Assembly: GCA_965153355.1 (NCBI GenBank)
Contig: OZ231126.1
Coordinates: 26,350,001 to 26,414,000 of the forward strand
Direction: 5' to 3'
DNA length: 64,000 nt
From: Flaccisagitta enflata
Lineage: Eukaryota
Part shown: positions 38,104 through 62,814 of the stretch, in pieces
Numbering within the stretch: the stretch's first letter is position 1
How the letters are laid out: every line of letters starts with the position of its first letter
Notes under the pieces: generated by a model
What the model was told of the DNA's origin: nothing
Databases searched by the model: none
What the model saw: the letters and a program-made list of their open reading frames with translations, nothing else
Made by a program: the position numbers and the translations under genes

Positions 38104-41100
38104 CTAAAACTTATTCTTGCTGTGGGCATGCTCCGCTTTATGCCTCTGAAACCAGTCTTCTTTGCAGCATTCCACGCTGCAATACAGCATTCTCTCCTCA
38201 ACCCTCCTCTCTTTCTTGCATTTGACGCAAGTGAGAAAAGTGTGAGGCTCCATCTCGACTTTCTTACAGATTCTGCACTGAGCAACAACAATCATTGAGA
38301 AGTCGTCGTCCATCGAATGAATTTCAGACATTTTCGACGCGATCGAAAACGGGTCGGAGATGCCGCTGTCTTCCGAAAGAGATCGCGTACGGGGAGCTTC
38401 CCCAACTCGTTTGTCAACAGCATCTTCGGCATCCTGAAGGATTTCCGATAATCTTTTGCCGGAACCATTTTCTTTAGAGACGAAGGCAAAGGCAGTGTCG
38501 GCGGCATTTTCAAGGTCGCCGACTTGCCGGAATTCGTCTTCATCCATGATTAGAGGACTTGATTTTCCCGAATCAGGAGGCGGTTGACTTGCGGAAGAAG
38601 TGAAGGAAGTAGTTGGTGAAGCTGTTGAATGGTACTCTGGCGGAATCACTAAGGATTTCTTTCTCTGGCTAGGATGTCTCGCCTGTCTAGCTGGAGCTTT
38701 CTGATCTTTGGTTTCATTCAATTTGCCCTTTCTGTCATCAACTTGACCCTTCTCGTTTCCCATATTTTCGCTCTTTACTTCATCACTTGATTTGGCTTCT
38801 CCATCATTTTGTCGCGTCGCATTTCTGCCTTTAGAGTAGACTTTTTGTCGGGTTTTTGTTTTGGTCCACATTCTTTTTCTCGTATTTCCCCATTCTTTTA
38901 AAACTTCCTCCGGCTTTTTCTTGGATGGCTCCTCCGAAAAATTGTTTACCCAATTGTAAATGGAAGACGCAAATGAGGTTAAAGCGATTAGGAACCGCCG
39001 AAGGCAGGAGGATAGCCACCAAATGCCACCATAAATGGCATGAATCACTTCCCACATGATTTTTTCAATGAACCAAATGCAAACACGTACGATGAATGAG
39101 AGAGAGAATATGAAGAGGCCTATAACGATTTTGACGAAAAGTTTTGCGCACATTAAAATCAACTTGCTTAAGTTGATCACACAAGCCATAATCGCCATCC
39201 CAGCACTCAAAATCATGATGAAAATTCCCGCGAGGTTGCCCAGTATGCCCAGGACAAACTCGATGGGCCCTTGGAGAATTGATAATGGGAAATATTGCAG
39301 TATCCACGAGTCGACGGCTTTCTTTTTTATCTCGATGATGCGAGTTTCAATCAATGGATTTATATCGCGGTTATTATCGAATGAAAAGATGAAAAGATCA
39401 ATCAATAGACTAATGCACATCCAACCGGGTGAAGACATGATTATCGTGTAAATGATTATTTTAGAAACCGCGTTGGAATCTAAAGGATCGTTGTTGGACT
39501 GCCGCGCATCTACAAGATTCCACTTGGAACGAGTGCTTCCTCCCCAGTTGCTGGAATTGAATACAAGTCCTCTATATTTATCCCCAGGTATCAAAAGGCA
39601 TCTCACCTTACTATCCTCCGTGGTCAAAGTCTCGTAAACTTCCTTATGAGTTATTCCGATAATTGTGTCATTGGTGTAGGCTAAGAATCCATAATCGCTG
39701 AGTTCCCCGAATAACTGAAGTCGGTTATTTTCCTTGATGTAATCCATATCGCATCTCCACTCTGGTTCTTTTTTCTTGTCTCTCAGCAAATCTAAGGCGC
39801 ACTGTCGATCTCCTCCCGATAAAATCCTGTCATCATCTAATCTCCGATCCATTAAATCGAAATCGCAATACAGCTTTTTGGTTTCAAAGTCGCGGTATTG
39901 ACAAAATTGCCGGGAGAACCATTTAAGACTAATTTTGCCCGAGTTGAGATGAAACTGAAAATAATTAGAGTCGAAGAGTCTTTCATAATCGATGCCAGGT
40001 AGAGCCGAAAGATCGAGGTAAGCCGAAAAACGCATTTTGATAGATAAAGAGGTTGGATCATCAAATTTTACATATGGATTAGTATGTTGCGCCTCTAAAG
40101 TGCGCCGTCCGAGGGGGAAGTGACCAATCCAATCTATTTCCACGCCCCGAGGCTTCTTTTCAAATACAGGCGTCACAATCAAGTAAGATACTTCAAACGT
40201 TTTGAGATCTATGCCCGTTAGAAACGCGGTAGATTGATTTCCCAAAACATGCAGGTTGTCCATAGCCTTTTGCCCGAGCAGATTTCCATAGATAACCTTT
40301 GCCTCAAGTTCAAGAGCCAACTTTTCAATCAAACCCAGAGTCTCAGATGGTTGAATTGGGTAGCCATTTAACGCGATCTTCTCTCTGTAAGAAAGTGTGT
40401 TGTTCCATGCTCTAAAATTGGAAAAGTGCCCATCTAGAAAATCCTGTACAGCTTCAATCAAATCTTTCAGATCAGCCTTTTTAGGACCTTCTATTAATTT
40501 CGCGGTGTTGAAGAGACTTACTAGTTGATGGGTCTCTTCGGCGTTGGAAGCATTTAATACCCAATTTTTCAACTGATTATTGTTGACTTTTTGGTGTTTG
40601 GTGATTCGGATGGTTTTGTCCATTTCCCACGTAGCGATGTCTTTCTCATCCCCGCCACCGAGGCTATCATAGACGGGCGTCGCATAACGCAGGAAATCTC
40701 GCCATTTTTCAGGTTTGATGCCGATTTTTGACGGAGTTGGGGGACCAAAAGATTTGCCATGATCAGGGTCTACATCAGACGAAGTCGATTCAAATTCCAG
40801 TTCATCATAAAAGCAGCCCAAGATGTTGTCACTTTTTACGATGGATGACACACGAGGGTTGCAACGTTTACGATCGTCACTGAACAGAGGGTCAATGTCA
40901 CGGTGAGTGCCGATGATCACATCTTCTGGCGAATGAGCTGAATTCAACAAGTCCTTACTGTTGCTTTTGTCGTCGTTATTATGGTTGACATTGTTGAGAA
41001 CATCAAAGCTGTCGTTGTTCAATGCATTGATGTTGTTATCATTATTCAAATCCCGATTTTGACTGCGATTTACGACATTCAAGTCACTATATTCGCGCCT

Positions 41101-60974: not shown

Positions 60975-62814
60975 TCTCGACGAAAGGATTAGACTCTTCA
61001 TCGTTAAACCAAGCATCGATATCAGAAACGTCTTCCTGCCTGATTCTCGGCATATCAGTCTGAAATGTCATACCAATGGACTGCCGAGAAGATGAGACAC
61101 GATGAGTCACGTTGTAAAGTGGAGCAACGTAACCCAAGAAATCGAACGTCGAAGATGAACTGACGTGAATTCCCCGCGAATTGTCGGTGACGTTATTGCC
61201 ATCATTTACAATGTCGCTGTTATTGACGATCCTGGTATCATCGACATTGTTGACGTTATTGGCGTCACTTTTTAACGGTAACGCCTCAAAAAAACAAAAA
61301 ACATCTTTCGGCCAAGCCTTGTGATGAACGAGATTTTGCGCTTGATGCATGACATCATGGTTCCAAACAATGTTGCCGAATTCTGCGGGGTTGACGATAG
61401 TCGGCGTTGTTATCGATGTGGTCACTGTTGCTGTGGTAGTCGTCGTTGATAATAATGTTGTTTTTATTGTCGTTTTCATTGTCGTTGAAGTCCTTGAAAT
61501 TGTAGTTGTCACTGTAATTTTTTCGTTTTCAATGTTGACTTTTCCAATGTCATTTTCGTTGTTGTTAATATCTTCGTTTTCTGTCATGTTGAATTTGCTG
61601 TCGTTGTTGTCGTTGTCGTTGTCGTTGTCGTTGTCGTTGTCGCGATTGATGTCACTGTCATTGTTGTTGTCTTCATCATTATCAAAGTCATTGTACCTCT
61701 CACTGTCATTGTGGTCTTCATTGTCGTGATTTCCGTCATGGTTGCTTGCACTGTCAAAGTTGTTGTTGTTGTTGTTGTTGTTGTTGTTGTTGTTGTTGTT
61801 GTTGTTGTTGTTGTTGTTGTTGTTGTTGTTGTTGTTGTTGTTGTTGTTGTCATGTTCGATGTCGTTGCCGTTTTTCTTTTCTGCTTGCTCCACCTCCTTC
61901 TCCACTTCCACCTTCTCTTCCCCCTCCTCCTCTTCGTCCCCGCATCTTTTTTCCACAATCGCCTTTTTTCTTTTTTTCTCCATTTTGGCGATTAATTTCC
62001 TCAAAGCCTCTCGTAGATTCATAATCAGTTTCGTGACATTGTTTTTCATGTGATTTCCGGCTAAATCGTCGGCGCCGAGATGAGATTCAGATTCTCCCGG
62101 AAGTCTTAGAATCGAATCCGGAAGCAACTTGATCGTCGTCGGGAAAAGGAGGAATCCGTCTTCCTCGTAGATGACATCCCCAACGTTGATGGCGGTGCAA
62201 GTCGATGGATGAAGGAACGTTTGGCGTGGAAAGGTGGCGTCGCTGGCACTGTTGTTGTTGTTGTTGTTGTTGTTGTTGTTGTTGTTGTTGTTGTTGTTGT
62301 TGTTGTTGTTGTTGTTGTTGTTGTTGTTGTTGTTGTTGTTGTAGGTACTGCTGGTGATGTTGCTATCAAAGGTACTTGTAGTAATGTTGTTATCTTCATT
62401 CTTGGCGTTGAAGACTGGCCCGTTGTTGGCGTCGTTATTGTCGGTGTTGATGCTATTGGTGCCGCTATTGTTGTTGTCGATGGCGCTGCAAGTCAATGAA
62501 CAAAGAAACGGATTATGTCGGTATGAGACGAAGTTGGTGTCATTTGCGGCGTTTTTGTTCTTGCCAATGTTGCCATTGAAGTTGGCGCTGTGGCAGTCTC
62601 CGACGTCGCATTCCCTAGTGGTGTTTGGAATATGGTAAGTTTTGCGGTTTAAGACGTTATTTTCAGAGCAGGGAACGGTCGAGATGAGGTAGAAGGCGAT
62701 AATGAAGAATGAGAATACGAAAATTGTCGATGAAACAGTGGAAATACGAGCCTGGGCAGGTTGGGGAATGAATAAAAAAGAATTGAATAAGAAAATTAAT
62801 ACAGTGTGATTCAT
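60973..62814 (-). CDS. Gene B' exon 1 (signal region, poly-Asn tracts, basic KKRKK site); spliced product ~1118 aa
   Basis: ATG at 62814; donor ACA|gtcagt at 60973/60972 is conserved in B (49433/49432). Homologous to B exon 1 and, more distantly, to the A N-terminus. Confidence 0.82.

Follow-up and report, generated by a model that had tools for sequence, protein, structure and literature searches.

A tandem cluster of candidate membrane glycoprotein genes in Flaccisagitta enflata, likened to viral fusion proteins but with no link to them detected

The closest described counterparts of the locus analysed here are the F-type class I fusion glycoproteins of paramyxoviruses, baculoviruses and errantiviruses, and the Drosophila gene Iris (CG4715). 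In the parts of the published accounts drawn on here, F-type ENV proteins are described as carrying a furin site that is highly conserved, together with a hydrophobic fusion peptide (PMC13524379), and Iris as a host gene domesticated from an F-type insect retroviral or baculoviral envelope gene, which has lost both the furin site and the fusion peptide, is intronless and tandemly duplicated with an intron gained in one copy, can be reached by PSI-BLAST from env genes and evolves under positive selection (PMC1262188). Here we analyse a cluster of four genes in a 64,000-nucleotide stretch of Flaccisagitta enflata DNA (GenBank assembly GCA_965153355.1, contig OZ231126.1, positions 26,350,001 to 26,414,000 of the forward strand; hereafter the window), which a preliminary description had interpreted as a host-domesticated, amplified family of viral F-like envelope proteins. 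The interpretation that we favour, and to which we give about an even chance of being correct, is that the cluster encodes a lineage-restricted family of host membrane or surface glycoproteins with an unassigned fold, putatively maintained by purifying selection.

The four genes are paralogous, lie head-to-tail on the minus strand and follow one another in the transcription order B, A', B', A. Coordinates are window positions throughout, and the limits of the cluster (38104-62814) run from the stop codon of A to the start codon of B. The window is microsatellite-rich eukaryotic sequence with a GC content of 32-50%. The features of the cluster are as follows.

38104..41910, minus strand: gene A (A-type), a single open reading frame (ORF) of 1268 codons, with its Met at 41910 and its stop at 38104-38106
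38131..38277, minus strand: MYND-like zinc finger of A (Pfam PF01753, E 0.0012, 19.3 bits)
45438..47717, minus strand: B' exon 2, disrupted, located by tblastn matches to the intact relative P0013 in four pieces and three frames
46852..47606, minus strand: B' insertion of about 755 bp inside exon 2, absent from the relatives P0013 and P0009
49433..50539, minus strand: B' exon 1, 369 codons from its Met, ending at the same donor sequence as B
55376..58306, minus strand: gene A' (A-type), a single ORF of 976 codons, with its Met at 58306
55403..55549, minus strand: MYND-like zinc finger of A' (Pfam PF01753, E 0.0031, 18.0 bits)
59158..60672, minus strand: B exon 2, 504 codons plus stop
60673..60972, minus strand: inferred intron of B, phase 0, 300 nt, GTCAGT ... 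TTTGTAG (GT..AG), predicted from sequence
60973..62814, minus strand: B exon 1, 614 codons, with its Met at 62814

The underlying minus-strand ORFs extend over 38104..41982 for A, 55376..58450 for A' and 59158..60672 for B exon 2, with B exon 1 lying within 60934..62916 and the B' pieces at 49406..51076, 45946..46878 and 45533..46030. Genes A and A' have no introns across 2.9-3.8 kb, and a single intron is predicted in B. B and B' share one donor sequence, and introns appear to be few in the family. The GC content of the genes (41.5-42.7%) falls inside the range of the window itself.

Paralogy is evident within each type and detectable between them. A and A' are 40% identical across 1046 alignment columns, and 76 of the 98 residues (78%) of their C-terminal zinc-finger ends are identical. 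The relationship between A and B is near-invisible to BLASTP, with an E value of 2e-4 over 34 residues and of 0.22 in another comparison. Profile-profile comparison with hhalign, of one A-type alignment against two B-type alignments, matched the N-terminal domain (probability 96.6%, E 5.9e-10, 87 columns) and the segment from the GID..TF hairpin to the first Cys pair (probability 83.7%, E 8.1e-6, 114 columns), and the matches are colinear in joint alignments. The shared order begins with an N-domain between two cysteines, a variable spacer, a C-[FY]-[FY] plus DFLR[YH]..P.Y segment and a helical stretch, and continues with the hairpin, five further aligned cysteines and a hydrophobic C-terminus. 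Because of these two profile matches we take the A and B types to be homologous, beyond chance similarity. Paired nucleotide repeats link A with A' and B with B' at a spacing of 11.5-17.3 kb, and synonymous divergence is alike for both pairs (1.45 for A/A', 0.8-2.0 for B/B'); since pairing and divergence agree in this way, the arrangement fits one tandem duplication of a two-gene B-A unit.

Three of the genes are open throughout, at 1268 (A), 976 (A') and 614+504 (B) codons. Estimates of the ratio of nonsynonymous to synonymous divergence (dN/dS) were obtained with the Nei-Gojobori method on ungapped blocks with at least a third identity, poly-Asn runs excluded, and gave 0.20 over 621 codons for A/A' and 0.16-0.36 across four segments for B/B', values that are to be read as lower bounds. 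The divergence thus looks constrained, and frames of about 1000 codons that stay open at such divergence argue for function, as far as sequence can tell. The most conserved part is the beta/Cys region (87% identity between A and the relative P0005, 52% between A and A'), and the least conserved is the membrane region of the A type. Up to this point our results agree with the preliminary description, which had placed four clustered genes on these ORFs, noted an intron in one lineage only, pointed out colinear motifs common to the A and B types, and regarded the family as amplified by duplication with three copies intact despite deep divergence; the dN/dS comparison of A with A' and of B with B' that it proposed gave, on conserved blocks and as lower bounds, values not near 1.

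The fourth gene, B', is broken in this assembly. Its exon 2 matches P0013, an intact relative of 506 residues, at 91-97% identity per piece by tblastn, with the pieces falling in three frames. The insertion at 46852..47606 contains an 18-nt minisatellite (47346-47517), and two frameshifts relative to P0013 occur near 46000 and 45640. An intronic nature of the insertion was considered and rejected, as its junctions lack GT..AG in a compatible phase.

The two gene types differ in architecture, mainly at their C-terminal ends. A hydrophobic N-terminal segment is present in four of the four genes, consistent with the signal-like N-terminus ascribed to all of them in the preliminary description. 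In A it is followed by the N-domain, a long poly-Asn spacer, the CFY/DFLRY segment, a helical region, the GID..TF hairpin, a Cys-rich beta region, about three hydrophobic segments and a tail of about 280 residues that is Ser/Lys/Glu-rich and includes a MYND-like finger. B exon 1 encodes two N-terminal hydrophobic segments, the N-domain, Asn/Asp/Thr-rich spacers and a CFF/DFLGY segment, and exon 2 a helical region, a GIDVETF hairpin, the Cys-rich beta region and a conserved multi-helix hydrophobic C-terminus. The ectodomains contain 12, 12 and 19 N-x-S/T sites, and eight ectodomain cysteines align between the A and B types; five of these lie in the C-terminal half, in line with the five-Cys spacing reported earlier ahead of the hydrophobic C-terminus. 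Three C-terminal segments reach a Kyte-Doolittle score of at least 1.6 in A and in A', and B has at least two hydrophobic segments and ends, without a tail, in a conserved helix block, with helices over residues 360-503 in an AlphaFold model of low confidence (predicted local distance difference test, pLDDT, 40.0). The initial caveat that more than one hydrophobic segment is present at the C-terminus was hence justified.

Within A', a 120-nt unit is present 1.9 times at 55699-55927 (minus strand) with 79% matches. It duplicates a 40-residue amphipathic-plus-hydrophobic membrane module that occurs as a single copy in A, and through this duplication A and A' come to differ in their number of hydrophobic segments.

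Perfect (AAC)25-31 microsatellites encode the poly-Asn tracts, among them a short (AAC)25 tract in A' (57841-57916) and two (AAC)31 arrays in B exon 1 (61759-61850 and 62250-62342). In the relative P0012 the N-domain is joined to the next conserved segment without any poly-Asn spacer. Because the repeats are perfect and absent from P0012, we regard the spacers as recent lineage-specific insertions rather than as part of the fold.

The C-terminal ends of A and A' resemble MYND zinc-finger proteins (PF01753) in carrying a Cys/His pattern with MYND spacing. Ligands in A are ordered C-x2-C ... C-x2-C ... C-x3-C ... H-x3-H, and a pattern scan with what we take to be the MYND consensus, C-x2-C-x(7-14)-C-x2-C-x(4-16)-C-x3-C-x(6-10)-H-x3-[CH], located the spacing with eight Cys/His ligands once in each protein. 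Both matches span positions 1-38 of the 39 in the PF01753 profile, but they differ from accepted members of the family in scoring 19.3 and 18.0 bits, under the Pfam gathering cut-off of 22.7, and in having His rather than Cys as the last ligand. To our knowledge, no large membrane glycoprotein ending in a MYND finger has been described. The relative P0005, 75% identical to A, diverges midway through the segment aligned to the MYND-like finger (38131-38277) and ends 9 residues further on; its genomic copy may hold an intron or a break where A has neither.

Relatives of the family are few. A HMMER search with B exon 2 returned 7 relatives at E <= 1e-3 among 1.84 billion representative proteins, and a word-seeded search with the A ectodomain returned one, 75% identical. 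All eight of these protein clusters derive from ENA assemblies only and none carries a protein name; the family appears previously undescribed, the detected relatives being unnamed protein fragments. Profile searches of a 5.8-billion-protein set recovered P0006-P0008 alone among the best 8000 candidates. Among the ENA sequences, P0016 is 97.5% identical to B exon 2 and P0013 corresponds to B' exon 2 in intact form. The JGI metagenome contigs, the IMG/VR viral contigs and the phage collection scanned yielded no relative. In an index of sequencing runs, words from the B stretch occur in runs of a single organism, in runs labelled as marine metagenomes with shares of 0.39 and 0.24 (index only), and in one metatranscriptome run with a share of 0.05, which counts as no evidence of expression.

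Two further relatives, P0017 and P0011, are identical from the segment before DFLRY onward and differ upstream, where P0017 opens with a homologue of the Cys-rich region usually found further downstream (tblastn match to 46081-46350). The arrangement points to a copy that is rearranged or in tandem in that organism, or else to an artefact of gene prediction.

No sign of a retroelement was recognised around the cluster. Inspection of the 17 direct-repeat families in 36000-64000, which comprise microsatellites, minisatellites, gene paralogy pairs and one internal duplication, revealed no flanking repeats resembling long terminal repeats. A Pfam scan of 23 other window ORFs identified no reverse transcriptase, integrase, gag, capsid or mobile-element domain; together with inspection of the window ORFs by eye, it revealed no further virus-like gene and no capsid, polymerase or integrase. 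The cluster therefore lies outside any retroelement context recognised in 36000-64000 or in the scanned ORFs, in line with the preliminary description.

The proposed kinship with viral F proteins fared differently. None of the 12 alignment members matches Fusion_gly or Baculo_F at E values up to 10, nor do the four gene products at E values up to 1, and no Pfam family is common to the members. Searches of PDB sequences at E values up to 10 with three family profiles, whole A' and the 81-residue motif stretch, which is the part that had been likened to measles F, returned no fusion protein, the matches obtained being poly-Asn or chance matches. Basic cleavage-like sites do exist, as had been stated, but they are not conserved: R-x-[KR]-R occurs in 3 of 12 alignment rows at 4 unrelated columns, none of them common to the A and B types. 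No ectodomain R-x-[KR]-R precedes a hydrophobic stretch (mean hydropathy of the next 20 residues -3.5, -1.2 and -0.7), in agreement with the earlier caveat that a clear fusion peptide is lacking. A crude 28-residue scan of a/d positions for heptad repeats picked out a single window each in A' and B and nothing in A, with no long repeat among them. Where an F protein would have one anchor and a short tail, A and A' each contain three hydrophobic segments, B contains at least two, and A ends in its long tail.

Structure prediction was of little help, because only about a dozen relatives exist. AlphaFold2 models of B exon 2 (10-row alignment; pLDDT 40.0, predicted template-modelling score, pTM, 0.21) and of the A' ectodomain (12-row alignment; pLDDT 41.3, pTM 0.34) are of too low a quality for a fold to be assigned. 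In the ESM Atlas, the P0013 model reaches a pLDDT of 0.32, and its nearest rows have template-modelling (TM) scores of 0.19-0.28; the A ectodomain had no usable match in the same resource. Foldseek searches against PDB and BFVD with these low-confidence models gave nothing at E <= 0.001 and no F protein among the rows listed, and a three-copy complex prediction for A' residues 268-600 scored 0.00, which speaks neither for nor against binding as the monomer fold itself is uncertain. The parallel drawn in the preliminary description to the F1 core of paramyxovirus and baculovirus F proteins thus found no backing in the Pfam and PDB profile comparisons that it had itself proposed; of its broader claim of a host-domesticated, amplified viral envelope family, duplication and intact copies stand, and the F-like idea is unsupported yet not refuted.

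Elsewhere in the window, the ORFs are mostly translated simple repeats. One segment is present twice, at 18462-20580 and 23289-25381, about 4.82 kb apart and with identical ORF translations, including identical 116-residue ORFs at 19313-19660 and 24132-24479; it looks like a recent tandem segmental duplication rich in (CT)n and 8-nt-period repeats. An interspersed repeat occurs on both strands, for example at 7525-8054, 13072-13449, 30017-30674, 32391-32654, 34927-35187, 43981-44221 and 44983-45277, with copies also between A and B'. Its translation shows a TDGRTDGR-like run beside a conserved ...KASYR...LK, and the repeat probably represents a short mobile element that contains a microsatellite. 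On the plus strand, a 353-codon ORF at 183-1244 with Gln/His/Ser/Pro runs, 54% GC and no Pfam match may be an exon of a host regulatory protein, and a 308-codon ORF at 16041-16967 matches Pfam DUF3915 at 27.7 bits (cut-off 26.9) over a Glu/Arg repeat stretch, probably a low-complexity artefact. A 21-nt-period minisatellite occupies 63627-64000, upstream of gene B and at the window edge.

The cluster genes share several features with Iris. As far as the Iris account drawn on here extends (PMC1262188), both are intron-poor host genes without a surrounding provirus, both encode a signal segment, conserved cysteines and a hydrophobic C-terminus and lack furin site and fusion peptide, and in both, tandem duplication has produced A and B copies of which a single lineage has an intron. 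By the same account, Iris differs in having about 500 residues and one C-terminal anchor, against 976-1268 residues and several hydrophobic segments here, in its PSI-BLAST link to env, where no sequence or profile link was found for the cluster proteins, and in its positive selection, where pairwise dN/dS of 0.16-0.36 (lower bounds) is the sole estimate for the cluster. The MYND-like tail of the A type is a further difference. Compared with the F-type class I fusion glycoproteins as described in the consulted part of the literature (PMC13524379), the cluster proteins lack a conserved furin site or fusion peptide. They also differ from those glycoproteins in having no Pfam or PDB sequence match, no long heptads in the crude scan, a multi-helix anchor and a long, putatively cytosolic tail.

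Capture of an F-type class I fusion glycoprotein from a paramyxovirus, baculovirus or errantivirus, followed by duplication, repurposing and an Iris-like loss of cleavage site and fusion peptide, is in our estimation unlikely. The layout would be compatible, with its signal segment, large ectodomain, anchor and helices ahead of the beta/Cys-rich part (secondary structure taken from low-confidence models), as would the eight conserved cysteines and the scarcity of introns, and because domesticated Iris lost its cleavage site too, the absence of one here leaves descent possible, Iris itself providing the precedent (PMC1262188, as far as drawn on here). Set against this are the lack of any fusion protein among the matches listed by the Foldseek, Pfam and PDB searches, the scattered R-x-[KR]-R sites in a group whose furin site and fusion peptide are described as highly conserved (PMC13524379), an anchor and MYND-like tail unlike those of F proteins, and the contrast with Iris, which by its published description stays detectable by PSI-BLAST from env (PMC1262188) while the cluster family does not by the profile searches run. 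A specific form of this scenario, to which we likewise assign only a small probability, would be an Iris-like domestication outside insects with a marine planktonic eukaryote as captor, in which duplication gave rise to a B form without a tail and to an A form that acquired an anchor of several membrane passes and a cytosolic adaptor of the MYND kind, before the two-gene unit was duplicated; its products could function in recognition or fusion between cells, or in protection against the virus that donated the gene. Quite unlikely, in our view, is an origin from another virus or mobile element, for instance from the gene for an envelope or membrane protein in a large DNA virus of marine plankton that awaits characterisation, with the genes now belonging to the host. 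Long intron-poor ORFs, an extremely narrow distribution (all 7 of the matches being unnamed fragments) and an ectodomain with no recognisable cellular domain would suit it; the viral contigs and phage collection scanned held no relative, however, the window ORFs include no virus-like companion, the genes do not stand out from the window in GC content, and A and A' carry a MYND-like finger. MYND fingers are mainly a cellular domain.

Very improbable is the explanation that the ORFs are decaying or non-functional duplicates whose conservation is an artefact. The insertion and two frameshifts in B' and the microsatellites expanded inside coding sequence point that way, but three ORFs of 976-1268 codons are open despite synonymous divergence of about 1 or more, dN/dS on the conserved blocks is low, and P0016 and P0013 represent intact near-identical versions of B exon 2 and B' exon 2 in independent ENA assemblies. 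The interpretation as a host-maintained glycoprotein family nonetheless faces several difficulties of its own. The dN/dS values overstate constraint, coming from self-chosen conserved blocks with synonymous divergence near saturation, and B' is broken in this assembly, which makes at least one copy dispensable here. The MYND-like fingers fall short of the Pfam cut-off and end in His, and the membrane topology is uncertain in that A and A' do not have equal numbers of hydrophobic segments. The ectodomain yielded no domain that would point to a function, recognition or adhesion being argued from architecture alone, and long intron-poor ORFs and a narrow distribution also fit a gene acquired from a virus.

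Under the host-family interpretation, the family would have grown by one tandem duplication of a B-then-A unit and would be kept by purifying selection. The N-terminal hydrophobic segment would direct each protein into the secretory pathway, leading to display of a large, disulfide-bonded and presumably N-glycosylated ectodomain composed of the N-domain, a variable low-complexity spacer, a helical region and a beta-rich Cys domain, with several C-terminal hydrophobic helices anchoring the protein in the membrane. In the A type, three predicted membrane passes would place the long tail and its MYND-like finger in the cytosol, because the number of passes is odd, whereas the B type would lack a tail and be anchored by a compact set of well conserved helices. 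In the cytosol, MYND fingers serve as adaptors between proteins. The ectodomain could then mediate recognition or adhesion at the cell surface, with the A type coupling recognition to cytosolic partners through its finger and the adjacent B type perhaps serving as a tail-less partner or decoy.

The main consequence of this analysis is to correct an over-confident interpretation of the cluster as viral-fusion-glycoprotein-like. Were the viral origin true, the cluster would record that an F-type envelope gene had been captured in the manner of Iris a second time and independently, with signalling hardware added, and would inform the question of the frequency with which animals or protists domesticate fusogens of viruses. 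If instead the host-family interpretation is correct, the cluster would define a family of large surface glycoproteins that has no name and no modelled fold and that combines ectodomain, multi-helix anchor and MYND-like tail in an unusual way. Tandem duplication, a broken copy and fast-changing spacers form a pattern often seen in recognition, reproductive or defence genes, and because of this pattern the family, which comes from a poorly studied organism, is a candidate for such a role.

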